Source of the DNA: an uncultured Pseudomonadota bacterium
GTDB lineage: Bacteria > Pseudomonadota > Alphaproteobacteria > RF32 > CAG-239
Direction: 5' to 3'
Assembly (NCBI GenBank): GCA_949295915.1
Contig: CASFNB010000002.1
Coordinates: 45,729 to 109,728 of the forward strand
Length of the DNA: 64,000 bases
In this document: piece after piece, positions 1 to 39,700 of the stretch
Layout: each line of letters starts with the position of its first letter
Numbering within the stretch: position 1 is the first letter of the stretch
Notes under the pieces: model-generated
The model's input: only the letters and a program-made list of their open reading frames with translations
The model's database searches: none
What the model was told of the DNA's origin: nothing
Made by a program: the position numbers and the translations under genes

Positions 1-514
1 AATACAGCCGGTCCGGCAAATCAAAATTTCCTGAAATTAAATATATTTGTTTTTTTCCATATTCAGAAGCGTATCGGAACTCATTTTTTTTCTTTCCGAT
101 TGTAATAAAATCGAGTAATTTTCCTTTTTCGTTATATGTTTTTATTTGGATTCCCTTGGCATCGTTTTCTGATAAAACTTCTGCCTCTTTTGCCGTTATA
201 TCAACAGGCAAAGCTTCAATTTTAGCTTGATTTATATCTTGAAACAGTTGATTGACGGTCATAAGATCCGCATAATATCCGTCAGCTTCTTTAACCCGCC
301 AAAACTTGTCATGATAATACAAACTAATCTGCAATTTTGGAAATTTTATAACAATTTTGTTAATATTCGTTCCTTGTTTATTTGTTTTTTCAAAAAGAAA
401 ATTTCCGATTGGATTTTCGTTAACATACACATTTTTTTCGTTAAATAAAAAATATGTAATGCCAATAGAAACACAGGTTATGAACAAACTAATGATAAGT
501 ATCTTTTTATTCAT
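1..514 (-). CDS. Partial DUF4340-like membrane-anchored protein. The C-terminus runs off the window; the start codon is at 514..512.
   Basis: Minus-strand ORF starting with ATG (MNKKILIISLFITCVSIGITYF..., N-terminal TM helix). It overlaps the stop of the upstream GldG-like gene by 8 nt. A DUF4340 protein typically follows gldG in Gld-like ABC operons. Confidence 0.5.
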   Translation of the reverse strand, partial: MNKKILIISLFITCVSIGITYFLFNEKNVYVNENPIGNFLFEKTNKQGTNINKIVIKFPKLQISLYYHDKFWRVKEADGYYADLMTVNQLFQDINQAKIEALPVDITAKEAEVLSENDAKGIQIKTYNEKGKLLDFITIGKKKNEFRYASEYGKKQIYLISGNFDLPDRLY

Positions 515-2366
515 TTATAATCCTTACATTTTCCTGTCTACGATGATAAACATACATTTTTACAAAAACAAAAGCCAAAAGCAACAAGCCAAGCGGAATA
601 AACAGCATATTAGCCAAAATTATTGCCGTAACTTTCTGTCCGCTTTTCTGTTGTATCTTATAGTTTAAGGCTTTTAACTCTTCCATTATCTCTTGCTGCC
701 GGCGATTATATTTATCCAATTCTTGAATTTTTAATAAAGACATGCCGATTTCTCCGGAACGAAGCTTTTGCTGAAAGGCTGACAAATCTTTTTTCAAGTT
801 GGAAACTTCTTCTTCCTTATGCTTATATTCCTCAGAAAAAGAAGCAAAGGTTTGTTCATAAATTTGTTCGGCAATATTTTTATCTTGATTGATTAAATAT
901 TTTACTCTGAGTTTTGCCATTTCGTCATTTCCGCTCATATAATCAATCACACTCAAGATAAAATCAGCATTGTTGTTAGCCGGAACCTGATCATAAACCA
1001 CGGCCTCTTTTTGATATCCGGTCAAATTCCACGTTTCATCTGCAATAAAATCACTATCGGCAATAACCATAATCTGCGCCGGTTTTGCACTGACAGATAA
1101 ATGCGGAGGAAAACTTTGCGCCAAGGATGTATTTTGAACAATGCTCTGCTCAAATGAAGACGTAAACATCCCGTCAATCCAATATGCTAAATTATATTTT
1201 TGATGTTCGGGAGAAAGAGCATTATATATTGTTTCAACATCATTATATTTAACAACATCAGCCTCTATCAGGTTGCCCTGCTCAGAAGTAAAGAAAATGG
1301 CCTGATATTTTGCTTCATTTTGAGGAACTCCGATTTCCAAATTTCCGGATGAACGAAAAGATATTGAAGACCAACTCTTTCCTAAAAAAGATGGAATATT
1401 CATATTCTCGGCTGATAAATTTAAATATGTCGGATTAGTCTGATTACTTAAAGTTGTTTGATATGCCGGGCGGCTTAATGTTTCATCTGCTACTATTTTT
1501 TGGTCGTCCGACTTTACCCCCCATTTTTCCAACAACGGCAGCAACATATTATGGTTTTTCTTTGTATAGGAGTATTTTTCTGCAATGGTTTCGGCATACG
1601 AGTCTATAAACAAGACTAAGTTTCCGCCACGCATAATAAATTGATCTAAAGCATAAACAAAATTAACGTCAACTTGTTGTGGATTAAAGACCAATAAAAT
1701 ATTAATATTCTGCGGAATCAGCGATATTCTTTTATCCAAAAATGCAAGTTTATAATCTGCTTTTATTTTATTAAATATTTGCCAATCGGATATATTTCCG
1801 CCAAAAGATATAACACCTATAGTTTTTTGCTGTGCGCCGTTGAGTTTAGCTAAAATTCTGCTTATGTCATACTCGGCATAATTTTGTCTTTGTAAAGAAA
1901 AATAAGGTATAACAAAGCGTTTCCCGTCTCCGTTAGAAAAGACAGCTCCAAAATACATATTTTTGGTATTTTCAGAATCGGGAAACGGACGGATTCCTTC
2001 TCTTTTTGCCTCATATTCAGCCGGAGAATAAGGTTCGGGATTCTTAATGTTTATACTAATTTTTCCACCTGACAAAGCTTGATATTTTTCCAGCATTCGC
2101 AATATACTTTGCCGATATAAATCAAGCTCAGGATACTCGGCATCCAAATCATCCGAAACATAAATCGTAATATTTGTCGGCTGAACCATATCCTTTGCTA
2201 TTTTTTCCGAAGCTTTTGTTAATCCGTATCTTTGCAAAGTTGTAACATCTGTTTTTTTGCTGCCGAAAATCAACGTGAAACTGCTCATCAAAGCAATAAA
2301 TACCACGCCGGCCATAAGGATTAATGCCGACAACGATAAAAATTTTAAATATTTCTTTTTATCCAT
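507..2366 (-). CDS. GldG-like ABC transporter auxiliary or substrate-binding component
   Basis: 620-aa product with an N-terminal TM, a large extracytoplasmic domain, and a C-terminal coiled coil plus TM. A GGAGGT RBS lies 7 nt before the MDKKKYL start at 2366. It follows the ABC-2 permease and ATPase genes in the classic gldA/gldF/gldG order. Confidence 0.7.
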   Translation of the reverse strand: MDKKKYLKFLSLSALILMAGVVFIALMSSFTLIFGSKKTDVTTLQRYGLTKASEKIAKDMVQPTNITIYVSDDLDAEYPELDLYRQSILRMLEKYQALSGGKISINIKNPEPYSPAEYEAKREGIRPFPDSENTKNMYFGAVFSNGDGKRFVIPYFSLQRQNYAEYDISRILAKLNGAQQKTIGVISFGGNISDWQIFNKIKADYKLAFLDKRISLIPQNINILLVFNPQQVDVNFVYALDQFIMRGGNLVLFIDSYAETIAEKYSYTKKNHNMLLPLLEKWGVKSDDQKIVADETLSRPAYQTTLSNQTNPTYLNLSAENMNIPSFLGKSWSSISFRSSGNLEIGVPQNEAKYQAIFFTSEQGNLIEADVVKYNDVETIYNALSPEHQKYNLAYWIDGMFTSSFEQSIVQNTSLAQSFPPHLSVSAKPAQIMVIADSDFIADETWNLTGYQKEAVVYDQVPANNNADFILSVIDYMSGNDEMAKLRVKYLINQDKNIAEQIYEQTFASFSEEYKHKEEEVSNLKKDLSAFQQKLRSGEIGMSLLKIQELDKYNRRQQEIMEELKALNYKIQQKSGQKVTAIILANMLFIPLGLLLLAFVFVKMYVYHRRQENVRIINE

Positions 2367-2379
2367 TTTGCGCACCTCC

Positions 2380-3111
2380 TTAATTCTTTTTAAAATCGAC
2401 AACGGCAAAATTCAGCAACAAACAAATTAAAACGGATAATACAAAAAATAATATATTGTCCAAACTGATTTGTCCTGTAATCAAATCATAATAATGATTA
2501 TTCAAATTTAACATATTAGACAATTTGCTTTCTGCAGATATAGGCATGTTAATGATTTTGATAAGCTTTGAAAAATCATATACATTAACAAAGAGCAAAA
2601 CCATTACTCCCCACAAATAAGACACGGCCGGAGATGAACAAAATGTTGAGATTAAACAGCACAAAGCACAAAAACTTCCTGACACCATCAAAACGGCGAT
2701 ATATCCGGCAACAATATTCAAATTATCGGTTTGAAAATATACATTCATATATATCCACAAAGGAGTACTTAAGAACAACATACATACACACATAAACCAC
2801 GCAGCCAAAAACTTACCAAAGATTATTGAAAAGAGTGATATAGGTTGTGTAAGCAAAAATTCCAAAGTTCCGTTTTTTCGTTCTTCTGCCCACAGACGCA
2901 TGGTCACGGCAGGAATCAAAAAAGCCATTATATAGGGTTGAAAATAAAAGAATGAAAATAATCCGGCATTGTTTATACTAAAAAAACCGCCGCCGAAAAA
3001 GGTTAAGAACATGGATATCAGGATATAAACCGCCAAAACGACCCATGCCTGCACCCCTTCAAAAAAAGAAAACACTTCTTTTTTAAATATAATATTCCAC
3101 TCTCTGCTCAT
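2380..3111 (-). CDS. ABC-2 family transporter permease (GldF-like)
   Basis: Polytopic membrane protein of about 6 TM helices. The start was chosen at MSREWNI to avoid a 40-nt overlap with the ATPase gene. It is translationally coupled to its neighbours. Confidence 0.7.
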   Translation of the reverse strand: MSREWNIIFKKEVFSFFEGVQAWVVLAVYILISMFLTFFGGGFFSINNAGLFSFFYFQPYIMAFLIPAVTMRLWAEERKNGTLEFLLTQPISLFSIIFGKFLAAWFMCVCMLFLSTPLWIYMNVYFQTDNLNIVAGYIAVLMVSGSFCALCCLISTFCSSPAVSYLWGVMVLLFVNVYDFSKLIKIINMPISAESKLSNMLNLNNHYYDLITGQISLDNILFFVLSVLICLLLNFAVVDFKKN

Positions 3112-3112
3112 G

Positions 3113-3832
3113 CTATTCAGCCTCACTGGTAATTTTGTAAAATGCGGTTTCAATATTGTGTTCGGGGAAAAGCTCTTTCAGCTCGGTCGGTGACGTATCT
3201 TTAACCAATTTTCCGTGATTGAGTAAGATCACTCTGTCGGCCATGGCTTCCACTTCTTCCATAATATGAGTGGATATAATGATAATCTTATCTTTTCCAT
3301 AATTTTTTAAATAATTTCTGATACTGAATTTTTGATTCGGATCCAAACCTTCGGTAGGTTCATCTAAAATTAAAATTTCCGGATTGTGAATCAATGCCGC
3401 AGCTATTCCCGTCCGTCGTTTAAAACCCTTTGACAAAGTTTCTATCTTTTGATTGATTACGCTCTTTAGCTCTAAATTTTCCACTACTTTTTTTAGATTC
3501 TGCTCAAATTCATTTTTTTTCATACCTCTTAATTGAGAGGCATAACGCAAAAAATCGGCAACTGTCATATCATTATACAAGAAACCGCTTTCAGGGACAT
3601 AACCGATTTTTTTCAAACAAAACTTTCGTTCGGTTTTGATATCCTTATCAAAGATGCGCACTTCACCTGATGTCGGTTCAATATAGCCGGTAAGAAGACG
3701 CATCAATGTTGTTTTTCCGGCACCGTTAGGCCCCAGAAGAGAAACCACCTCTCCTTTGGATATACAGAAATTAACATTGTTTACGGCTTGTTTGTTGCCA
3801 TAATTTTTACATAAGTTTTTAACCACAATCAT
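3113..3832 (-). CDS. ABC transporter ATP-binding protein (GldA-like)
   Basis: Walker A GPNGAGKTT, signature LSKGFKRR, Walker B ILILDEPTEGLD, and an H-loop. Confidence 0.9.
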   Translation of the reverse strand: MIVVKNLCKNYGNKQAVNNVNFCISKGEVVSLLGPNGAGKTTLMRLLTGYIEPTSGEVRIFDKDIKTERKFCLKKIGYVPESGFLYNDMTVADFLRYASQLRGMKKNEFEQNLKKVVENLELKSVINQKIETLSKGFKRRTGIAAALIHNPEILILDEPTEGLDPNQKFSIRNYLKNYGKDKIIIISTHIMEEVEAMADRVILLNHGKLVKDTSPTELKELFPEHNIETAFYKITSEAE

Positions 3833-3978: not shown

Positions 3979-4470
3979 ATGAACGAAGAAGTTTATACAA
4001 AAGATGAAGCAAGACACTTAAAAGTCGGAATCTATACCGCCATGATTCTTGCTTTAATTTCCGGTATTTATGTAGTCAATAAAGATAGTATGGCACATAA
4101 AGAAAGCGGAAAATATTATACCGTTGATGCTCGTTTTAACCGGACTGACGGATTGCTTGTCGGCGACCAAGTAAGATTGGCCGGTGTTGATATCGGAAGA
4201 GTTGTCGGCGCAAAACTTGACGAACATTTCAAAGCAATATTAACTTTGGACATTAAAGAAAACGTAAAGATTCCCGATGATAGCAGTGCCTCCATCGTCA
4301 GTTCTGGACTAATGGGTAAAAAATATATTGAAATTGAACCCGGTGGGTCTATGGATTACATTCCTCAAGGAGGAGAGTTTTCATATACTCAAGATGCTAT
4401 GGTCTTAGAAGAATTGATGGATAGGATCATTTCTATCGGAAAAGCTAACCGCAAAGCCGAAAATAAATAA
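3979..4470 (+). CDS. MlaD/MCE-domain protein (paralog 1)
   Basis: N-terminal TM anchor followed by a single MCE domain (…VRLAGVDIGRVVGAKLD…ASIVSSGLMGKKYIEIEPG). Confidence 0.8.
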   Translation: MNEEVYTKDEARHLKVGIYTAMILALISGIYVVNKDSMAHKESGKYYTVDARFNRTDGLLVGDQVRLAGVDIGRVVGAKLDEHFKAILTLDIKENVKIPDDSSASIVSSGLMGKKYIEIEPGGSMDYIPQGGEFSYTQDAMVLEELMDRIISIGKANRKAENK

Positions 4471-4497: not shown

Positions 4498-4959
4498 ATG
4501 AATAAAAAACCGGTTGAAACAATTATGGGTATTGTGGTCCTTTTTGTGGCCGCATCTTTCTTATACTTTGGCTTCAAAGTTTCTGATTTGCAAGTCGTAA
4601 AAGGTTATAATGTTACGGCCAATTTCTTAAAAGTTGGCGGGTTGAATGTTGGTTCAGATGTCAGAATCAATGGCATCAAGGTTGGTTCCATTGTTGAATT
4701 AACATTAGATGAACAAGATTACATTGCCGATGTTAAAATGAGCATTTTGCCTAACATCAAATTACCCAAAGACAGTGTTGCAACCATTGTCGGCGATGGT
4801 TTGATGGGAGATAAATTTATCAAAATCGAACCGGGAAAATCTAAAGAAATGTTAGCGGACGGAGATACCATCTCCAATGTTAAAGATTTCAAATCTTTAG
4901 AAGATATGGTCGGTGAAATCATTTTTATGGTAACGGATAATGGACAGAATAACAACTAA
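4498..4959 (+). CDS. MlaD/MCE-domain protein (paralog 2)
   Basis: Same architecture as the upstream gene (…VRINGIKVGSIVELTLD…ATIVGDGLMGDKFIKIEPG). It is in tandem and has an AGGAG RBS. Confidence 0.8.
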   Translation: MNKKPVETIMGIVVLFVAASFLYFGFKVSDLQVVKGYNVTANFLKVGGLNVGSDVRINGIKVGSIVELTLDEQDYIADVKMSILPNIKLPKDSVATIVGDGLMGDKFIKIEPGKSKEMLADGDTISNVKDFKSLEDMVGEIIFMVTDNGQNNN

Positions 4960-6373: not shown

Positions 6374-6504
6374 GTGCCGGCAGCGGCTGAGGCCCAGGGG
6401 GCTTAAGTTTATACACTTGTAAAAAAGCAAAGTCCGCCGGCATATTTAGGGTTAGTCGTATCGTTGATTGAGCTTTAACGCTCGTGTATAAGGAGGACTT
6501 ACCC

Positions 6505-7434
6505 ATGAATGACTATAACATAAATATTGGAATAGATGTAGCAAAAAATCATTTAGATGTATGTATTTTACCCTCCGGCAAGACTAAACGCTTTAAGAAC
6601 AATGAGTTAGGGATACTATCACTCATAGAATTTATTGGAGATAAAGAGCAAATAGAACGGATTATTTTGGAACCAACCGGAGGCTATGAAGAATTGGTGT
6701 TAGAACTGTTATCAGAAAAAAATTATAAGATAAGTCTTGTCAACGCCGCCCAAATCAGAGCTTTTGCAAGAGCAAATGGCATATTAGCTAAAACAGATAA
6801 AATTGATGCGAAAGTTCTTGCTGATTATGGAACAAAAATTCCAAGTCGCTTGTATGTACCTTTATCATTACCACTCAAACAACTCCGAAAATATGTTCAG
6901 CGTCGTCGCCAGCTTTTACATATGATTGTTGAAGAAAAGAATCGTCTGAAAAAAGAACGAGATGGTGAAATGATTATTTTAATCAAAGAAACTCTGGAAT
7001 ATCTCAATAAACAAAAAGATATTTTAGAACAAAGAATTATTGAAAAAATTGAAACCGATGAGCAGTTAAAAAGCATAAAAGAAGTTTTAGTTTCAATGAA
7101 AGGTATTGGTTGCGTTACGGCGGCTGTTTTGATATGTGAAGTTCCTGAACTGGGAAAATTAAGCCATAATCAGATTGCAAAGTTAATCGGAGTGGCTCCG
7201 CTTAATCGTGAAAGTGGTATGATGAGAGGAAAAAGCAAAATCTATGGTGGTCGTGGATATGTCAGAGACAGCTTATATTTAGCGGCTTTGCCCGCAATTC
7301 GTTTTGAACCGATTTTAAGAGATTTTTATTTAAGGCTGAAAAATAACGGCAAACCTGGAAAGCTTGCCGTTATTGCTGTTGTGCATAAAATGATTACGAT
7401 ATTAAATGCTCGCTTGCGTGATTTTTATGCTTGA
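6505..7434 (+). CDS. IS110-family transposase
   Basis: N-terminal IGIDVAKNHLDV motif (DEDD RuvC-like fold), C-terminal …VSMKGIGCVTAAVLICEVPELG…, and an AAGGAGGA RBS 7 nt upstream of the ATG at 6505. Confidence 0.9.
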   Translation: MNDYNINIGIDVAKNHLDVCILPSGKTKRFKNNELGILSLIEFIGDKEQIERIILEPTGGYEELVLELLSEKNYKISLVNAAQIRAFARANGILAKTDKIDAKVLADYGTKIPSRLYVPLSLPLKQLRKYVQRRRQLLHMIVEEKNRLKKERDGEMIILIKETLEYLNKQKDILEQRIIEKIETDEQLKSIKEVLVSMKGIGCVTAAVLICEVPELGKLSHNQIAKLIGVAPLNRESGMMRGKSKIYGGRGYVRDSLYLAALPAIRFEPILRDFYLRLKNNGKPGKLAVIAVVHKMITILNARLRDFYA

Positions 7435-10999: not shown

Positions 11000-13267
11000 T
11001 TACATTAATCCGTTTCTAGCCGCATTAGCTTTATTACAAGGCAAAATGTCTTCAAATTTTGTTAATTTTTCAAATATTTTCAAAACTTTATCGGAAGTAT
11101 ATTTTTTATAGCAAAAATCCGCACGATAAAAATCTGCTTTGATATTTTTAGCTTCTGCGGCGACACAATACGGATTTTCAGAGAACAGCATAATCTGACA
11201 ATCTTTAGAAAGAGCCTGATAATATTTTCCATCGCGTTTTAAGCTCAACCATTTTTCGCCCTGCGGACAATTTTTACAATCGTTGGAACGAATACAATCG
11301 GCACTGGTAAACAGCGGCACATCTTGATACACAACCATACAAAGCGGAAGTTGCGATTTATCTGCAAGCCCTTGCATATTAGATAAATCATCTTCCAAAG
11401 CCAATGTAACGCGTGAGGCGTTCATCCCTTTAGCTTGCTCTATTGCTTGTGTGTTGAGCGTATAGATAGAGGCATCAAAAGAAATATCTACACCTTTTTC
11501 AGGCAAAACCGACAAGCCCCAATAATGCCCGATTTCCCATTTCTTATAGCCTTGAGATAAAAGTTCGGCAATGAGCTTAGTATAAAGCTGAGGCTTACGA
11601 CAAACGGCAGGCAATGCAATACGAACTTTATTTTTAGGCAATGCTTTCAACTCTTCCGCTTTTGAACTTGGAGAAATCAGCCAAATAACTTCAGCAACCT
11701 TATCTAAATCAATCTGCGCGAGGCTGGCAAGGTTATCGGTCTTAATCACCCATTGCGGAGCTTGTTGAGCTCTGGGCACAGAAATTTCGGGCATTGAGCC
11801 ATGCTTATCTTCAATTTTGATTTGCGCATACAAATCACGACGCAATTCATTCAAAAGAGATGCCGGCGCAAACAGATTGTTCGGGTTATCAATGATAATA
11901 TCAGCAAGCGTGAAATTGGTATCACCGGTTTTGCCAAAAGCCGTTTCAATTGCAAACTTTACTTTATCCGGATTCTGCGCCGGCGCAAATTCGCCGCTGA
12001 CTTTGGCTGAAACACCGTTTGCCGTTGCGGTAATTGTCGTCGGTTTCACAACAACCTCAACCTTAACCTCATCACGACGCATAAACTCCTTCGGCTTGGG
12101 TTTGGTATAAGGATAAGCCCCCTTCACTTCGCTTGATGATGCTAAATAAATATTTTCACCCAAAGAAAGTTCCGGCGTTTTCGGTGGTAAAGAAATTTCT
12201 ACGAGTGTGTTTTTCTCGGCTTCACAAACATTTTTGCCGTTAACTTTCAAAAACTGCAAAGAAAAACCAAACGGCTTTTCATCTCCGCTCACATCAATCT
12301 GGATTCCGTCATAACGGGCAATTTTATGATTCGTTTTGAAAAAGAGCTTGTTCTTGGCAATTTTTTCAATTTTACCGATGAGCAAACCGCGGTGTCCGAC
12401 AAAATCGCGGTCAATCACGTTTTTGTTTTTGCCTTTAAAATGGAAATCTGTCCACGGACGAGAGAAAATCTGCTTAATATGCTCTTCTCTGATGCTGTCG
12501 GCACCCTTCCCGTCCAAGATCCGACGATAATAATCGGTAACGGCAGCCACGTAGAGTGCAGTCTTTTTGCGTCCTTCAATTTTGAGCGAAGTCACCGGCA
12601 TATCCAAGATTTTTTCTTGCAAAGCCATATCTTTCATTGAAAAATAGTGCTTTTTACCGGCTTCTCCTTCAAAAGATGCTCGACAAGGATACAAACATTT
12701 GCCGCGGTTGGCACTTTTTCCGGTTTCAAAAGAAGAAAACAGACAAAGTCCGCTGTAAGAATAGCACAAAGCACCATGGATAAAGGCTTCGGTTTCCAAA
12801 TTGGGAATAGAAGCAATTTCTTTAATTTCAGACAAATGCAACTCACGCGCCAAAACCACACGCGTAAAGCCGATTTTTTGTAAAGCTAAAGCCCCTTCTT
12901 TATTATGTACCGCCATTTGTGTACTGGCGTGCATTTCAAGTTCGGGATATTGCTCGTGAATAATGCGCGCTACGCCTAAATCTTGGATAATAATGGCATC
13001 AACATGATATTTGGAACATAAATCCAAAGTTTTAAGGAGTTGCGGCATTTCGTGCTCTTGCACCAAAGTATTGATAGCCACATAAACCTTGCGCTTGAGG
13101 TGATGCGCAAAAGCCACAAACTCATTGAGTTGTTGTTCATCAAAATTAGCCGCCGTAGCACGCGCCGAAAAGTTTTTCAAGCCAAGATAAACCGCATCAG
13201 CACCATAGTAAAGCGCGGCATAACCGGCTTCAATATCTCCTGCCGGTGCCAAAAGTTCTTGTTTCAT
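11000..13267 (-). CDS. Peptidase U32 family protein (long form with a C-terminal extension)
   Basis: N-terminal U32 signature (…ELLAPAGD…AGADAVYLG…) and a conserved Cys-rich segment (CYSYSGLCLFSS…GKCLYPC). The 755-aa length is consistent with U32+DUF3656-type proteins. Confidence 0.8.
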   Translation of the reverse strand: MKQELLAPAGDIEAGYAALYYGADAVYLGLKNFSARATAANFDEQQLNEFVAFAHHLKRKVYVAINTLVQEHEMPQLLKTLDLCSKYHVDAIIIQDLGVARIIHEQYPELEMHASTQMAVHNKEGALALQKIGFTRVVLARELHLSEIKEIASIPNLETEAFIHGALCYSYSGLCLFSSFETGKSANRGKCLYPCRASFEGEAGKKHYFSMKDMALQEKILDMPVTSLKIEGRKKTALYVAAVTDYYRRILDGKGADSIREEHIKQIFSRPWTDFHFKGKNKNVIDRDFVGHRGLLIGKIEKIAKNKLFFKTNHKIARYDGIQIDVSGDEKPFGFSLQFLKVNGKNVCEAEKNTLVEISLPPKTPELSLGENIYLASSSEVKGAYPYTKPKPKEFMRRDEVKVEVVVKPTTITATANGVSAKVSGEFAPAQNPDKVKFAIETAFGKTGDTNFTLADIIIDNPNNLFAPASLLNELRRDLYAQIKIEDKHGSMPEISVPRAQQAPQWVIKTDNLASLAQIDLDKVAEVIWLISPSSKAEELKALPKNKVRIALPAVCRKPQLYTKLIAELLSQGYKKWEIGHYWGLSVLPEKGVDISFDASIYTLNTQAIEQAKGMNASRVTLALEDDLSNMQGLADKSQLPLCMVVYQDVPLFTSADCIRSNDCKNCPQGEKWLSLKRDGKYYQALSKDCQIMLFSENPYCVAAEAKNIKADFYRADFCYKKYTSDKVLKIFEKLTKFEDILPCNKANAARNGLM

Positions 13268-13366
13268 AAGAAATTTCCTTAAAATTAACTTATCTATAAG
13301 CTATTGCAGGCGGCTTCGCTTGTCAAGCAAAGAAAAGGCCTCTCAAAAGAGAGGCTTATCTTAATA

Positions 13367-14791
13367 TTAGAAACGAAAATCTCGTAAACCTTGTTCAATT
13401 TTGTGCAGATTATCATTACAAATATCATGAACTTTAGGCATAGGAATATGGTTAAGTTCTTTTTTAATAAGCTCTTCTCCGATTTTGCGTGTTTCCGGGC
13501 TGGCATAATCAAGCAAATATTCTTTCAAAGTCATCAACGCATTAGGCAAACAGCAGTTATGAATTTGCATATTTTTGCATAAAGCCATAAAGCGATCGCC
13601 GGTACGCCCTTCCCGATAGCAAGCCGTGCAAAAACTTGGAATATATCCCATTTTCATCAGCCAACGCACAACTTCATCAAGAGTACGATTATCGCTCACT
13701 TCAAATTGAGATGAGTTATCATCTTCGGCTTCCGGTGTATCATAACCGCCGACACTGGTCTTAGAACCACCGCTTATTTGCGAAATACCATAATGAATAA
13801 CCTTTTCGCGACACTCTTTGCTCTCACGGGTGGACATAATCATACCCGTATAAGGTACGGCAATACGAATACAAGCCACGATTTTGGCAAAAGTATCATC
13901 ATCAATACCGTTATCAAACACACTCGGATCAATATCATCGGCACGACGGATTCTCGGTACGGAAATCGTATGCGGTCCGACACCGTGGACAGCTTCCAAA
14001 TGTTCGGCGTGCATCAAAAGTCCGGCAAACTCGTAGCGATATCTCTCCAAACCAAACAACACACCTAAACCTACGTCATCAATTCCTCCCGCCATAGCTC
14101 GGTCCATTGCCTCGGTATGATAAGCATAATTATGCTTTGGTCCTTTAGGATGCAGTTTTTCATAGCTTTCTTTGTGATATGTCTCTTGGAAAAGAATATA
14201 AGTACCGATTCCGGCGTCCTTGAGTTTGCGATAATTTTCAATGGTAGTCGCAGCAATATTCACATTTACACGGCGAATAGCTCCGTTTTTATGCTTAATG
14301 GAATAAATGGTTTTAATCGATTCCAAAATATATTCAATCGGATTATTGATGGGGTCTTCACCGGATTCGATAGCCAAGCGTTTATGTCCCATGTCTTGCA
14401 GAGCAATCACCTCTTTGGCAATCTCTTCTTGTGTCAGCTTTTTTCTTTTGATATGTTTGTTAATCGCATGATACGGACAATAAACACATCCATTCACACA
14501 ATAGTTAGAAAGATACAGTGGTGCAAACATCACTATGCGATTACCGTAAAAATCTTTTTTAATTTGTTCCGCCAGAGCAAAAATCTCGGCATTTTTTTCG
14601 GGGATATCGCAATCAAGCAAAAGCATGGCTTCACGGTGAGATAAGCCTTTACATTTTTTGGCTTTTTCTAAAATTTGATTGATTAGTTCTGGATTATTTT
14701 TATGGGCATCGGCATAAGCCAATGTGTCTAAAATTTCTTCATGGCTGATAAATTCCTCAGCCTTTAAGGACTCTGGATTATACATATTCAC
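13367..14791 (-). CDS. hydG: Radical-SAM tyrosine lyase of HydG type ([FeFe]-hydrogenase H-cluster maturase)
   Basis: Radical SAM CVNGCVYC (CX3CX2C). ThiH/HydG-like core. At 474 aa it is about 100 aa longer than ThiH, and it carries the C-terminal auxiliary-cluster motif CTACYREGRTGDRFMALCKNMQIHNCC (CX2CX22C). Confidence 0.75.
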   Translation of the reverse strand: MNMYNPESLKAEEFISHEEILDTLAYADAHKNNPELINQILEKAKKCKGLSHREAMLLLDCDIPEKNAEIFALAEQIKKDFYGNRIVMFAPLYLSNYCVNGCVYCPYHAINKHIKRKKLTQEEIAKEVIALQDMGHKRLAIESGEDPINNPIEYILESIKTIYSIKHKNGAIRRVNVNIAATTIENYRKLKDAGIGTYILFQETYHKESYEKLHPKGPKHNYAYHTEAMDRAMAGGIDDVGLGVLFGLERYRYEFAGLLMHAEHLEAVHGVGPHTISVPRIRRADDIDPSVFDNGIDDDTFAKIVACIRIAVPYTGMIMSTRESKECREKVIHYGISQISGGSKTSVGGYDTPEAEDDNSSQFEVSDNRTLDEVVRWLMKMGYIPSFCTACYREGRTGDRFMALCKNMQIHNCCLPNALMTLKEYLLDYASPETRKIGEELIKKELNHIPMPKVHDICNDNLHKIEQGLRDFRF

Positions 14792-14854
14792 TCACTTTCT
14801 TTCGGGTTAGAAAAACTTTCCCGTCAGGTTAAAAAATAAAATTAATAAATGAAA

Positions 14855-15109
14855 TCAGACATTTGCAAAGAGGGTTTTTGATGAAATCCCTTTTAATTTG
14901 CCGATTTTTCCGGATAAAGCACTTATAATATCTTGAGGTGCATCAAGAACAACCGAGATAATGCTGACATTTTTTTGTTTATAAGGAATACCCATTCGTC
15001 CGATAATATGAGATGCGTATTCATGCAAAATTTCATTCAAAGCCTCAACGGAATCTCTATTTTCAACGATGATACCGACAATAGCTACTCTGCTTTCCAT
15101 AACAAACAC
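14855..15109 (-). CDS. TM1266-family small ACT/NikR-C-like protein (putative iron-only hydrogenase system regulator)
   Basis: 84-aa protein (…RVAIVGIIVENRDS…GRMGIPYKQKNVSIISVVLDAPQDIISALSGKIGKLKGISSKTLF) that fits the family usually found next to hydE/hydG. Confidence 0.6.
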   Translation of the reverse strand: MFVMESRVAIVGIIVENRDSVEALNEILHEYASHIIGRMGIPYKQKNVSIISVVLDAPQDIISALSGKIGKLKGISSKTLFANV

Positions 15110-15120
15110 TCACTTAAGAG

Positions 15121-16437
15121 TTAAAAACGACTGAAAATCGGCAAGTTTTTCTCGAGCTGGACACGTTGCTGTTCAATCAGAGTCGCCATATTCAATTTAC
15201 CGCTGCGGAGCATGCCTCTAACCGGACACCCCGAGGTCGTATCCGGATTTGCAAAAAGATAAGACAAAACAGCTCTTTTAGGTGCACCTGTTAAAATTTG
15301 GTGAATACATCCCAGAAAACCGTTAGCAACCAGTTCATAAGCCATTTCTTCCGAAATACCGCTTGATGCGGCATACTTCACTAAAGCATTGATGGCATCA
15401 CTCACATTATTAGCGTGAATTGTAGACAAGACCAAGTGTCCGGAAGTTGCAGCTCGCAAAGCTTCACTGGCCACATCGGGAGAACGAATCTCACCCAAAT
15501 AAATATAACGAGGTTTAGATCGCAATGCAGATTTAATACCTTCTTCCCAAGAACCGTTCGGAGGAGTTGTCTGTTTGCACAATCCGAGTTCACCGTCTTT
15601 GGTCACATAGACACCATCAAGAGGCATTTCTATCGGATCTTCAATAGTAAAGGCATAACCGCCCTTTCTAACCAAATATTCTTTCAATAGGGCTGAAATT
15701 GTTGTACTTTTACCGGATCCGGTAGCACCCGCCAAAAGAATTAATCCGCTGCAGCCGGCAATAGAATTCAAATGGCTCAAAACCCCGCTTGGAAAACCAA
15801 GCTTTTTCAAATCAGGCACTTCAATCGGCATTTTACGAGCGCAATATTGAGGACCTTCAAGAGCGACAGATCGTTCAACACGATAATTTCGATCATGATA
15901 ATTTAAAAGATAACTGGGGTTTCCGTCATACAAACTCTCCATTTTAGCAAAAAATTCAGAAAAATCTTGGAAAGTTACATATTTCAGTCCGCAATCGGTT
16001 TTTCCGCTCCAAATATAGCATTTTTTGTCAGGTGTAACATAGACATCGGAAAATTTAATATCATTAATCAGCCCCAATTTTTCAGGAATAGTTGTCAACG
16101 AAGAAAGATGGGAAACATCTTGTTGTTGAGGTTGCACATAGGATGAGTTAACATCAGCATGAGATTTGTCTGAACTTACTTCACTCAATTTATCTGGATT
16201 TGCCGACATTTGGTCTGCAGATTGCTTTTGTTCTGTCATTAATGCTGTCGGTTTCTGTACTTCCGCTTGAGGTTGAGTGTTTGTTCCGGAATTTTCAATC
16301 ACAACACTAGGACGAGGCATGGGACGTTGTCTCATTGCCATCATCTGACGATTATCAACCGTTTTATTAGGGGTCTGAATATTTTGTTTTTTTTCATCAG
16401 AATGCCCAAAAATTTTACTACCACTAAAAAAATCCAT
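15121..16437 (-). CDS. PilT/DotB-family secretion ATPase with an N-terminal low-complexity extension
   Basis: Walker A AGATGSGKSTT, Asp box FTIEDPIE, His box GHLVLSTIHANN, Walker B region. The N-terminal ~120 aa are rich in Q, S and P and look disordered. The exact start is uncertain. Confidence 0.75.
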   Translation of the reverse strand: MDFFSGSKIFGHSDEKKQNIQTPNKTVDNRQMMAMRQRPMPRPSVVIENSGTNTQPQAEVQKPTALMTEQKQSADQMSANPDKLSEVSSDKSHADVNSSYVQPQQQDVSHLSSLTTIPEKLGLINDIKFSDVYVTPDKKCYIWSGKTDCGLKYVTFQDFSEFFAKMESLYDGNPSYLLNYHDRNYRVERSVALEGPQYCARKMPIEVPDLKKLGFPSGVLSHLNSIAGCSGLILLAGATGSGKSTTISALLKEYLVRKGGYAFTIEDPIEMPLDGVYVTKDGELGLCKQTTPPNGSWEEGIKSALRSKPRYIYLGEIRSPDVASEALRAATSGHLVLSTIHANNVSDAINALVKYAASSGISEEMAYELVANGFLGCIHQILTGAPKRAVLSYLFANPDTTSGCPVRGMLRSGKLNMATLIEQQRVQLEKNLPIFSRF

Positions 16438-16657
16438 TTTTTTTCCATAAAAAAAAATAACAACAACACCAAAAACGTAATTATAATATTATAAAATGAA
16501 AAAATTAACAAAACTTTTATTAAGATAATCAACAAAACTTTTATAAGAAATGAAAAAGTTTTCTCAATTTCAACATAGATTGAGAAAGAAAAAGTCTTCA
16601 ATAAAAAATAGCAAACACTGTTTAATTTATACTACAAGAGGCGAAATTTACAAAACA

Positions 16658-16801
16658 AGTGACCGCAGCGAGTTAGAGTTTGATACGCAAACTCTTACGA
16701 GCCAGAAGAACTCCTTAAGGGAGTTCGAACCTATTATATGGATACAAAAAAAAAGCCTCAGGACTAAATCCCAAGACTCTGAATTGGTGGGCGCTGAGAG
16801 G
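16658..16801. repeat. Direct repeat copy 1 (144 nt) containing a 17-nt fragment of the tRNA-Val 3' end
   Basis: Identical to 16905..17047 except for a 1-nt difference in an A-run. It ends with tggtgggcgctgagagg, which is the reverse complement of the last 17 nt of tRNA-Val including CCA. Confidence 0.9.
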
Positions 16802-16904
16802 CTTGAGGAAGGAAAATTCTCCTGTGGAGGATTTTCTAACGAAAGGCGAACATTTGTTAGTTTTGAGGCAAGTGACAACGATGCCGACAAAGCGTTACAA
16901 ATGG

Positions 16905-17047
16905 AGTGACCGCAGCGAGTTAGAGTTTGATACGCAAACTCTTACGAGCCAGAAGAACTCCTTAAGGGAGTTCGAACCTATTATATGGATACAAAAAAAA
17001 GCCTCAGGACTAAATCCCAAGACTCTGAATTGGTGGGCGCTGAGAGG
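16905..17047. repeat. Direct repeat copy 2 (143 nt) overlapping the 3' end of the intact tRNA-Val
   Basis: See copy 1. The two copies are separated by a 103-nt spacer. Confidence 0.9.
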
Positions 17048-17106
17048 TTCGAACTCCCGACCCTCTCGGTGTAAACGAGATGCTCTTCCAGCTGAGCTAA
17101 GCGCCC
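17031..17106 (-). tRNA. tRNA-Val (anticodon UAC), CCA encoded
   Basis: 76-nt cloverleaf: acceptor GGGCGCT/AGCGCCC, anticodon stem TCTCG/CGAGA with loop TTTACAC, T-arm GGGAG-TTCGAAC-CTCTC. Confidence 0.9.
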
Positions 17107-21092: not shown

Positions 21093-21344
21093 ATGACACA
21101 TCTTATCAAAAATACCGAAATTGGAGAAGAAATAGAAGTTGACGTTTCGGTCACGCTGGGAACTGCCAATCTACGAGTAAATCAACTGCTCAAACTGGGG
21201 CGCGGAGCTGTTGTTGAATTAGACAGAGATGTAAATGATTGTGTTGATATTTATGCCAACGACGTTCTCATCGGTCACGGTGAAGTTGTAATTACAGAAA
21301 ATGACAAAATCGGAATTTCCATAATTGATACGCAAACAAAATGA
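21093..21344 (+). CDS. FliN/YscQ-family (SpoA domain) protein, stand-alone
   Basis: 83 aa matching the C-terminal SpoA domain (…LGTANLRVNQLLKLGRGAVVELD…ANDVLIGHGEVVITENDKIGISII). A GAAAGG RBS is present. Its stop overlaps the next gene's start. Confidence 0.6.
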   Translation: MTHLIKNTEIGEEIEVDVSVTLGTANLRVNQLLKLGRGAVVELDRDVNDCVDIYANDVLIGHGEVVITENDKIGISIIDTQTK

Positions 21345-36772: not shown

Positions 36773-39700
36773 ATGTCTGATGACGAAGAAAAAATAAAAA
36801 ACATAAAAAACAATTTAAATGAATTTGACCTGCGCAACTTAAATTTGGCAAATTTTTCATCTCAAGAAGAAGCGCAATTTCATAATTATATCAAAGGCAT
36901 TTGCCAACGTCTGCTCGGCGACACGCTCAATTTGGATGAAAAAAACATAATTTTTGCTTTATCTGATCGAGATGAAACAAACGCAGCTCATATGTCAAAA
37001 AATAACATCAGCGTTATTTATATTACCGAAGAGCTGCTTAAATTATGCGATAATGAAGACCAGCTGGCTTTTATCTTGGGACACGAACTTGGGCATTATG
37101 AAGAAACCTTACGCCAAGGTTCAAATAAGTTTAATTCCAAAGCCGAAGAAACCTCCTGCGACTTACGTGCCATTCAGAAAATGGCTCGCGGCGGCTATAA
37201 TCTTGAAGAAGCCTGCAATGTCGCCTCAAAACTTTTTAACAATCCTTATATTTCTATTGAAGACCTGAAAGATCCCCACACAAACAACAATTCTCGTCTG
37301 AATCTGATTAATGCGATGAAAAAAAAGGAAAAAGACCGCATCATCGAAGAGCAAAACATAGAAATCACTCAATCCACCCCAATTCCACAGGATATTTTAA
37401 AAATAGTTCACGAAAGAACCGTACAACCGGATTTTATTGATATTTTAGATTCACAAATGGAACAATCCGCTCAAAAAAGCAATGATCCTGATGAAGCACA
37501 AGTTAATGTTTGGCTCAAAGCTTTTCAAGAACATATTATTTATGTCGAAAATTCATATAAAATGACGCAATACGATATTGAATCTTTTAAGTCTTGCCTT
37601 TACAACTTTAATGATAGCGAAGTCGCCATAGATAAGTTTCTTGCAGCTCTTTTTGCCGAGATGGAATCCATGCCCAAAGATGCTTATTATAACGCTTATA
37701 CGGAAATCATGCACAGCATCTTAGAGAGAATAGAAACCTTTGACGACTTTGACGACTTTCAAATTCATGCCGATAACAATGATTCTAAAACTGCAGCTTG
37801 GTTAAGATATTACCTTCACGGTTTCAGGGAAGCCGAAGGAGAAGATTTTTACAATATTATCAAAAAGTTGGACTTTGTTAAAAAATTTACGGCTCGGCAC
37901 GGTTGGGATGATGGTACTTACAAAGGAATTTTGGTCAAAGATTTTAATTTATTGGAACTTGACTTTAATGAAAGTGATGTCGGCAAAAAAATTTCCCCTG
38001 AAATCATAAATTATATTCGAACAAATCTTAACGCATATAACGAATTTGCCACCTTCAGCGGTTTAACCGTGCGAAAGATTGGCGATTCTTTACTCTTAAC
38101 CCAAGGCAAAAAAAATTGGAGCATTTTTGCAGATGCTTCGGGTAAAATTACATATTCATTTTCTACGCAAGATTTGAGCAAAATGCAAAATTTATTAGTG
38201 CAAGACAATATTGAAAATATTTATACAAATCTTGAAGACATAGCCTCAGGAAAAATTACCGATACGCGCCAACGCTTAAATATCTTAAAAAAAGCGTATC
38301 AAATTATTTCTCCCGTCTCAAGAAAAAATGATTTAAGCAACATTTTGGAAAAGCATGGCGCGGAAGATGATAAAAAAGAAATTTTGTATGATGACTTAAT
38401 TCCCATACTCTCAGATAAAGCTAAAACATTTTTTAGTGAGCGCATGGCCCAAACAAACGATAATTTGCCCTACACGCAAAAAATTACCGACTTATATGCA
38501 GATGTTATTCGTTCCGCCCCTAAAGAATACTTTGATGAAATATTAAGAACACTGACACAATATTTCCCTCGTCACCGATTAAGCGGTGAAGACAAGTTAA
38601 TGCGCGCCTTTTTGGATAATTCCGCTTTTGCAGACAAATTATCAACAGCGATTGAATCTTTTGAACCTTTTCCGGAGAAATCAAAAGGTTGGAAATTTCT
38701 TGAAATGTTTAGAATGCCGGATGCTAATCTTCGTTGTAGCTTGTCTAATTTTGTATCCAAAATAAAAACAATTACAGATTTCAAACTCAAAGAACATCTT
38801 GAACACGGCGGTAATTTTGATGATTTTGAACAGCCTTTTAAAAAAGATTTAGCCCGCCTGTTTGGATTCCATCCCTATGGTAGCATTGATGAAAAAGAAG
38901 CTTTAGACAATCTTAAGCGTACACGCAACAAAGATAAGACAGATACAACATTATATGAACAAGCCTATATTGCCTATTCTTCATATGATGCTCTCAAAAG
39001 CGATAGCTCGACGAATGCTGAACTTTTATGTGGATATAATGCTGCAGGCACTGAATTAACAAAACAATGTTCCTCCGAAAAACAGTTACTTAAATCTACG
39101 GAAAGATACCGGATTGATGCCGATGAAGCAAAACAAATTCTTGCAAGACAACAATCTTTACAGTCCGTAATCAATAAAATACACAATCGATTGACAGAAC
39201 GCACAAATCATGAAATTGAAAAAGGCAATATCTCTATTGTTGATATCAATGATATGCTTTCAAACAACGACTATCATGATAATGGTATTCATGGAAATCA
39301 CGGATTTGATACCATTATATCAAATTTTGATTTTGAAAAGCCCATTCTTCAGTATATGGAAAAAGGAAACGAATATGATATTGAAGCTTGTATATTTTCA
39401 TTATCAGGTATGGTAGAAGCTTATAAAAATAATACAAGAAAAGGTGATGCCTATAAAGAAAAAATTTGGCCTTACATTGCCAAGATTTTTGAACGAAAAG
39501 ATTTGACTGTTGAGAACAAAGTAAATTTTTTCCATCAACTTACATATGATAATGTTTTTGCAAGCGATTATAAAAGGTATTATGAAATACTTATCGGAAA
39601 AGACGGAAAAAGCGGTTTATTACATGAAATTGACAATTTAAGATATCCGGATGATAAATTTTACCGTTATCTAAAACTCTTAGATAAGAATACGCGTATT

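Follow-up and report, generated by a model that had tools for sequence, protein, structure and literature searches.

An intact HydG maturase paired with a TM1266-family protein in a gut alphaproteobacterial lineage that probably scatters its [FeFe]-hydrogenase genes

Background

HydG, a radical S-adenosylmethionine (SAM) enzyme of [FeFe]-hydrogenase maturation, cleaves tyrosine with its N-terminal [4Fe-4S] cluster and builds an Fe(CO)2(CN)-cysteine synthon on a C-terminal auxiliary cluster with a 'dangler' Fe; HydE and HydF turn this synthon into the [2Fe] subcluster of the H-cluster, which is delivered to the hydrogenase HydA. An outline of this chemistry is given in PMC9431212, where the C-terminal CX2CX22C motif of the auxiliary cluster is also reported to be essential for maturation. 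Here we consider a hydG gene and the TM1266-family gene directly upstream of it in a 64,000-nucleotide stretch of DNA from an uncultured alphaproteobacterium (contig CASFNB010000002.1, positions 45,729 to 109,728), hereafter the window. An earlier note, made from the letters of the window alone, had described this pair as an orphan maturase with its regulator and had proposed either an anaerobic lifestyle with a dispersed hyd regulon or a repurposed HydG. Our analysis indicates that the gene is a canonical, intact HydG, and we regard it as highly probable that it plays the normal HydG role, in a TM1266-hydG unit from a gut alphaproteobacterium that lives by fermentation as a strict anaerobe and encodes the partner genes elsewhere in its genome.

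The gut 'CAG' alphaproteobacteria, the lineage of the window included, are presumably to be classed as the order RF32, or the 'Azospirillum sp. CAG' group. RF32 has been described as an order of uncultured gut alphaproteobacteria with reduced genomes of ~1.6 Mb (PMC8199421). Searches of the literature for hydrogenase in RF32 or CAG-239, and for Scatocola, returned only microbiome surveys or nothing, and neither RF32 nor Alphaproteobacteria figures in the supplements of a survey of gut hydrogenases (PMC12578642). The occurrence of HydG with HydE, HydF and HydA in these gut alphaproteobacteria has been on record since 2016, when it was published as part of a discussion of whether eukaryotic hydrogenosomal enzymes could be of alphaproteobacterial origin, and a dispersed hyd set in an anaerobe is accordingly already known for a sister species of the organism studied here. 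In that work (Degli Esposti et al. 2016, Biol Direct 11:34, PMC4967309, Table 1) 'Azospirillum sp. CAG:239' is listed with HydG (CDB54364), HydE (CDB54134), HydF (CDB53483), an M3-type HydA (CDB53277) beside the NuoE/F-like CDB53275/6, and a second HydA (CDB53824). As these accession numbers are far apart, HydE, HydF and HydA are placed at separate loci; a like dispersal is listed in the same table for Acetobacter sp. CAG:977. According to a 2019 paper (PMC6431628), CAG:239 is a strict anaerobe that lacks every terminal oxidase. Scattered maturase genes are, moreover, common in well-studied hydrogen producers, such as C. autoethanogenum, where HydE, HydG and HydF are encoded by CLAU_RS08145, RS03260 and RS10040, respectively (PMC9431212, Table 3).

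Results and discussion

Identity of the HydG protein

The two genes of the pair and the short motif that precedes each of them are as follows:

13367..14785, minus strand: hydG, [FeFe]-hydrogenase H-cluster radical-SAM maturase, 472 amino acids from the ATG at 14785
14855..15100, minus strand: TM1266-family gene, 81 amino acids from the ATG at 15100 (TIGR03959, PF21699, 2NZC)
14789..14797, minus strand: AAGTGAGTG, copy 1, 3 nt upstream of the hydG ATG, containing the GTG used by the mechanical open reading frame call
15107..15115, minus strand: AAGTGAGTG, copy 2, 6 nt upstream of the TM1266 ATG, read from the sequence

In the list of open reading frames (ORFs) both genes appear slightly longer, hydG as 13367-14791 (-), 474 amino acids, with a GTG start at 14791 two codons before the ATG, and TM1266 as 14855-15109 (-), 84 amino acids. 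The ATG codons at 14785 and 15100 are nevertheless the likely starts, because the database relatives are all called at 472 and 81 amino acids, and because the GTG codons fall within the nonamer AAGTGAGTG, which is probably the ribosome-binding region.

The HydG ORF is recovered by the NCBIfam equivalog model TIGR03955 with 929.7 bits (E=2.5e-280, cutoff 312) over the whole of the profile (1-470 of 470), and Pfam detects a Radical_SAM and a BATS domain in it. Its best match among solved structures is Thermoanaerobacter italicus HydG (PDB: 4WCX; 560 bits, residues 10-474), followed by C. hydrogenoformans HydG (4RTB, 364 bits). Both cysteine motifs that had been noted at first reading are present in this minus-strand gene: the CX3CX2C of the radical-SAM cluster is C98/C102/C105, and the CX2CX22C, C388/C391/C414, the auxiliary-cluster motif, aligns with the C-terminal domain of 4WCX. 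The two motifs are invariant in all 84 HydGs aligned, and so is H261; this residue lies in an LLMHAEH stretch and has the His of LYHANH as its counterpart in the alignment with 4WCX. This position corresponds to His265 of characterised HydGs, which we take to be the ligand of the labile 'dangler' Fe. Across the alignment 198 of the 477 columns are invariant. Scored against a profile of non-alphaproteobacterial HydGs, the alphaproteobacterial members rank only 18th to 84th of 84. The two Firmicutes HydGs of known structure are thus matched in full-length alignment, in both motifs and in the aligned His, and although the window comes from an alphaproteobacterium, its protein shows no functionally notable difference from them. 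A database protein of 472 amino acids, P0002, is 100% identical to it, and variants that are 93-99% identical, all of 472 amino acids, are present in many metagenome assemblies. On these sequence grounds we regard 13367-14785 (-) as a canonical, intact HydG, which would cleave tyrosine and assemble the Fe(CO)2(CN) synthon on the dangler Fe.

A misread tyrosine-lyase radical-SAM enzyme of cofactor biosynthesis, of the ThiH, NosL or CofH type, is one alternative to this assignment. These are the next-best families: the ThiH model TIGR02351 reaches 288 bits, the ThiH structure 7PD1 180 bits over the core only, and NosL 62 bits, and ThiH (2-iminoacetate synthase) has the tyrosine-lyase radical-SAM core and the BATS domain in common with HydG. 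However, the ThiH score is under the cutoff of 380 and the match stops at residue 386, whereas that of HydG runs end to end. ThiH is without the C-terminal auxiliary-cluster domain; the window protein has ~90 extra residues at its C-terminus, which carry the family-invariant CX2CX22C and align to 4WCX. Family scans of the neighbouring genes, in addition, found no thiamine genes adjoining hydG. The curated cutoffs refute a ThiH-type identity, to which we give a negligible probability, and the preference of the earlier note for HydG is upheld.

Three HydG database entries depart from the usual length. P0001 (662 amino acids), P0004 (631 amino acids, labelled 'Roseburia hominis') and P0005 (627 amino acids) exceed it by 150-190 residues and score 1234, 1091 and 1085 bits, respectively, as against 1095 bits for the 100%-identical protein of 472 amino acids, which points to an internal duplication of part of the protein, to a fusion or to an error of gene calling.

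Genomic context of hydG in the window and its relatives

We searched the window by tblastn with HydE, HydF, group-A6 HydA and NuoF-like probes, which were taken from related loci and identified by family scan. No credible match to hydA, hydE or hydF was obtained in the 64 kb, the sole substantial matches at E<=10 being to the radical-SAM core of HydG itself. Family scans of nearly all window ORFs of >=120 amino acids gave housekeeping genes only, namely those for a GldAFG-like ABC transporter, two MlaD proteins, an IS110 transposase, KdtA, LpxK, MdoG, GatA/B, SppA, FabI, Lon, HU, RecA, AlaS, ThyX, DHFR and MnmA. The local absence of the other hyd genes, which had been read from the ORF list, is thereby confirmed with two kinds of search.

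The window carries an alpha-type two-piece transfer-messenger RNA and has a G+C content of ~37%. When one genome per species is considered, the closest HydGs (79-88% identity) come from gut metagenome-assembled genomes (MAGs) labelled 'uncultured Alphaproteobacteria', 'Azospirillum sp.' or 'proteobacterium', represented here by the seven loci L001, L002, L003, L010, L028, L030 and L037. These observations agree with the suggestion of an AT-rich, host-associated alphaproteobacterium. A common gene order, KdtA-DUF374-(FliN-like)-Lon-HU...TM1266-HydG...U32-(MatE)-ECF sigma (extracytoplasmic function sigma factor), is seen in the window, in L001, L028 and L081-L091, and at the loci of the HydG proteins P0044, P0051, P0094 and P0020. 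The TM1266-hydG pair accordingly occupies the same housekeeping neighbourhood in at least four related lineages, with hydE or hydF never within 10 kb.

One of these loci links the window to the published hyd set. P0044, which is syntenic and 87% identical to the window HydG, has exactly the sequence of CDB54364.1, the HydG of CAG:239, an accession now labelled Candidatus Scatocola or Alphaproteobacteria bacterium MAGs. CAG:239 is likewise gut-associated; its TM1266 and hydG form a pair at the position seen in the window, the KdtA-Lon-HU...U32-ECF sigma neighbourhood, and hydE, hydF and hydA are absent within 10 kb. It differs from the window in belonging to another species or genus (neighbouring proteins are 51-92% identical), in having HAD and GT2 genes in the interval between hydG and the U32 gene, and in lacking the T2SSE-family ATPase gene found upstream of TM1266 in the window.

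To place this arrangement in a wider setting we compared 80 fetched HydG loci (81 for the count of TM1266 positions). The order TM1266-hydE-hydG-hydF is found at 19 loci, with three variants; 14 have TM1266-hydG-hydF and nine have TM1266-hydG only. At 51 of the 81 loci TM1266 is found upstream of hydE or hydG and in the same orientation, and where present it is always the first gene of the maturase operon, which bears out the statement that the family is usually found inside hydEFG clusters. At 51 of the 80 loci hydF is within 10 kb of hydG, none of them alphaproteobacterial, and the loci that have an upstream hydF, or one on the opposite strand, belong to Firmicutes or Gastranaerophilales-like organisms. 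Firmicutes TM1266-hydE-hydG-hydF operons share with the window the leading TM1266, hydG, strand and order, and their HydGs are 78-83% identical to that of the window; however, they keep hydE and hydF at the locus, which the alphaproteobacterial relatives do not. Six of the seven alphaproteobacterial species-representative loci have TM1266-hydG only, the seventh, L030, being cut by a contig end just upstream of hydG. Neither hydE nor hydF occurs within 10 kb at any of the seven, and with the contig ends of L003 and L010 checked, none shows the adjacent hydF that has been reported for CAG:260. Since this holds for every alphaproteobacterial locus, the loss of the operon structure is shared stably by the whole lineage and is nothing particular to the window.

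Taken together with the published set of CAG:239 and its reported want of terminal oxidases, these comparisons speak for the first of the two explanations offered earlier, an anaerobic lifestyle with a dispersed hyd regulon. By comparison with CAG:239, the genome of the window would also encode HydE, HydF and two HydA proteins elsewhere and would be devoid of terminal oxidases. An ancestral TM1266-(hydE)-hydG-hydF operon would have been split in this lineage, leaving TM1266-hydG between HU and the U32-family gene, and HydE and HydF from other loci would make the [2Fe] subcluster from the HydG synthon for HydA. The orphan look of the pair would then be an artefact of the 64-kb view, arising because the lineage scatters its hydrogenase genes over the chromosome. 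In practice, a lone hydG should not be called an orphan before the whole genome is checked, and the window can be placed in a lineage of gut alphaproteobacteria that are strict anaerobes and metabolise hydrogen.

Three points weigh against this interpretation. HydE, HydF and HydA are reported for the sister species with the 87%-identical HydG, and are predicted for the species of the window itself. The CAG:239 set is as reported in a 2016 analysis of metagenomic species bins (PMC4967309). Finally, the missing hydE and hydF within 10 kb at seven of seven alphaproteobacterial loci, if taken alone, is also the picture that an orphan HydG would give.

Such a true orphan would imply that hydA, hydE and hydF were lost or never present, and that TM1266-hydG was kept for another job, with CO/CN-, the Fe(CO)2(CN) synthon or dehydroglycine supplied to a different acceptor. 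Besides the alphaproteobacterial loci just mentioned, the absence of hydE, hydF and hydA from the 64 kb is in its favour. Against it stands the syntenic sister species, which is reported to have a full hyd set elsewhere in its genome. In addition, HydG is ~80% identical to the HydGs of hyd operons and retains every H-cluster-specific ligand unchanged, where a switch of acceptor or function should have left some trace; and TM1266, otherwise specific to hyd operons, has been kept beside it. We consider an orphan role very unlikely. A sharper form of the proposal, in which hydA, hydE and hydF are absent and TM1266-HydG is a selected two-protein module that provides an Fe-CO/CN species or CO/CN- for a use other than [FeFe]-hydrogenase, appears to us just as doubtful.

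Selective constraint and phylogenetic position

The strength of selection on the pair bears on the same question. Between the window and L001 the HydG genes have a nonsynonymous divergence (dN) of 0.086 and a near-saturated synonymous divergence (dS) of ~1.6, giving a dN/dS of <=0.055. This is the lowest value in the block, where Lon has 0.090, HU 0.084, the U32 gene 0.17 and the ECF sigma factor 0.15; for TM1266 it lies at 0.05-0.22. HydG is hence under very strong purifying selection, a further argument against an orphan role, and its standing as the most constrained gene of the neighbourhood points to a normal maturase serving a dispersed hyd set. In conjunction with the ~80% identity to HydGs encoded in hydE-hydG-hydF operons and the invariant ligands, the low dN/dS disfavours a repurposed or a decaying gene, and the repurposed HydG offered as the second explanation in the earlier note is not borne out.

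Decay would mean that hydG and TM1266 are remnants of a lost hydrogenase system drifting towards pseudogenes, as the local absence of the other hyd genes might suggest. Both frames are intact, however, the dN/dS values just given are those of maintained genes, full-length variants of 472 amino acids recur in many assemblies, and all ligands are conserved. The selection data contradict such a remnant, which we hold to be extremely improbable.

The resemblance to Firmicutes raises the issue of foreign DNA, either a fragment with a Firmicutes hydG that was acquired recently by horizontal transfer or an error of metagenomic assembly or binning. Just behind the alphaproteobacterial HydGs come those of very many Clostridia at ~80% identity (range 78-83%), far above the expectation for housekeeping proteins, and the G+C content of the 12-14 kb stretch (0.418) is slightly above the mean of the window. 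The pair nonetheless sits on one contig amid alphaproteobacterial housekeeping genes, in a position that is kept in independent assemblies of at least four related lineages, among them contigs 0.3-2.0 Mb long. That clostridial HydGs are so similar, moreover, follows from the extreme conservation of HydG everywhere, as seen in its large share of invariant columns. In a neighbour-joining tree, which is star-like, the alphaproteobacterial HydGs cluster, with L037 apart, and the tree picks out no specific Firmicutes donor, all lineages being ~80% identical. A recent or artefactual foreign origin thus has hardly any likelihood in our estimation. An ancient horizontal acquisition of hydG is possible; were it to have taken place in the ancestor of the group, the function of the gene would be unchanged.

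The TM1266-family protein

The frame upstream of hydG had been taken for an 'iron-only hydrogenase system regulator', and its membership of this family was recovered by both of the relevant models, TIGR03959 at 117.4 bits (cutoff 60.8) and PF21699 at 114.8 bits (cutoff 27). Thermotoga maritima TM1266 itself, solved as a structural-genomics 'hypothetical protein' (PDB: 2NZC), was matched by sequence at 57 bits and belongs to the same family and fold. A single-sequence AlphaFold (AF2) model of the window protein, with a predicted local distance difference test score of 87.3, has a beta-alpha-beta-beta-alpha-beta topology. Its top Foldseek match is again 2NZC, with a template-modelling score (TM-score) of 0.94, a root-mean-square deviation of 0.9 Å and 38% identity in the structural alignment. 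Next comes the C-terminal nickel-binding and tetramerisation domain of NikR (TM-score ~0.86, ~22% identity), and other matches are to ACT-type domains, e.g. those of IlvN, PurU and PGDH. The residues invariant in the family (A6, N22, L25, G34, R35, M36, P39, I48, D53, A54, P55, I59, G64 and G67) form a GRMGxPY and a DAP motif and include no His or Cys.

The relationship to NikR does not extend beyond the fold of its C-terminal domain. NikR has a ribbon-helix-helix and a His/Cys nickel site, neither of which is found in the window protein: Pfam scan, model and Foldseek revealed no ribbon-helix-helix or other DNA-binding domain, and the lack of His and Cys among the invariant residues of the family leaves no NikR-type nickel site. 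The NCBIfam NikR model gives only 21.8 bits (E=1.4e-4), far under its cutoff of 111, and a profile of the TM1266 family fails to retrieve NikR sequences. We therefore rejected NikR as the identity of the 81-residue protein.

As TM1266 is a stand-alone NikR-C/ACT-like domain devoid of a DNA-binding part, 'regulator' is merely a label for it. We infer for TM1266 the role of a small ligand-sensing or protein-binding accessory, in preference to that of a transcription factor by itself; a search of the literature on TM1266 found no functional study. With its ACT/NikR-C-like domain it may sense a ligand and act on the maturases themselves as a direct partner, with no part in transcription regulation, a milder and likelier proposal than that of an orphan module, and one that would explain why TM1266 stayed with hydG after the operon broke up. 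Within this lineage it would be an accessory of the TM1266-hydG unit that senses a small molecule or binds a protein, rather than a regulator that binds DNA. As the widespread leader gene of hyd maturase operons with a ligand-binding-type domain only, TM1266 poses a small, testable question in H-cluster biosynthesis.

Transcription unit and neighbouring genes

The immediate surroundings of the pair comprise a putative transcription terminator and two genes on the same strand, the latter being the U32-family and PilT-like neighbours that had been recognised earlier:

13338..13355, minus strand: intrinsic-terminator-like hairpin, GCCTCTC-TTTT-GAGAGGC followed by a T-rich tail (consensus scan and direct reading)
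11000-13267, minus strand: U32-family protein, 755 amino acids, N-terminal half like TrhP/UbiU (O2-independent hydroxylases), with DUF3656
15121-16437, minus strand: T2SSE/PilT/VirB11-like ATPase, 438 amino acids, with a low-complexity N-terminus of ~190 residues

The hairpin, a consensus match only, begins 11 nt past the hydG stop, between TM1266-hydG and the U32 gene, and on this account the pair is probably a unit separate from the downstream gene. We rejected a functional link between hydG and the U32 gene on three grounds: the intervening hairpin, the HAD and GT2 genes inserted in CAG:239, and the fact that the U32 gene adjoins hydG only in the alphaproteobacterial lineage of the window and is not beside it elsewhere. 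Rather than a peptidase, the 755-residue protein is probably a further Fe-S enzyme of anaerobe type.

On the other side, 20 nt separate the end of the T2SSE ATPase gene from the TM1266 ATG, and neither the consensus scan nor direct reading revealed a terminator between the two. This ATPase gene precedes TM1266 only in the closest relatives, L091 and L092 (94% HydG identity), in the former directly upstream as in the window. It is absent in L001, L028 and CAG:239, where small hypothetical genes fill the interval from HU to TM1266. Other secretion or pilus genes were not seen near the ATPase gene.

Other features of the window

In L091, ApbE-RseC-RnfB-like genes lie 9 kb from hydG, which fits a ferredoxin-based anaerobic energy metabolism. 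They are part of a segment beyond an acetyltransferase gene (L091, 16962-21419) that encodes DsbD, a CDP-alcohol phosphatidyltransferase, ApbE, RseC and an RnfB-like Fe-S protein, a probable Rnf module. In place of this set, the window has genes for a histidine phosphatase, an IS110 transposase and MlaD past its acetyltransferase gene. The IS110-family transposase gene (6484-7434, plus strand) lies at the point where synteny with this 94% relative ends.

The MlaD genes are tandem paralogues (3979-4470 and 4498-4959, plus strand; 163 and 153 amino acids), and the pair adjoins the GldA/GldF/GldG-like ABC transporter (507-3832, minus strand), in a genome that is not of Bacteroidota. A small ORF in the Lon/DUF374 interval (21093-21344, plus strand) has a homologue at 2022-2273 of L091, and its counterpart in relatives carries a FliMN_C domain, typical of the flagellar switch or type III secretion; other flagellar genes were not seen in the window. 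The ORF at 36773-42355 (plus strand) encodes 1860 amino acids, in which the sole recognisable domain is an N-terminal peptidase M48 fragment (residues 38-110), the remainder matching no Pfam family.

Finally, upstream of the T2SSE ATPase gene there is a direct repeat of ~160 nt, with copies at 16648-16806 and 16895-17052 that are 97% identical at a 247-nt spacing. The second copy includes ~22 nt of the 3' end of a tRNA-Val gene (17031-17106, minus strand) together with an identical 29-nt terminator-like hairpin, and the repeat looks like a tandem duplication or the att-like scar of a once-integrated element.

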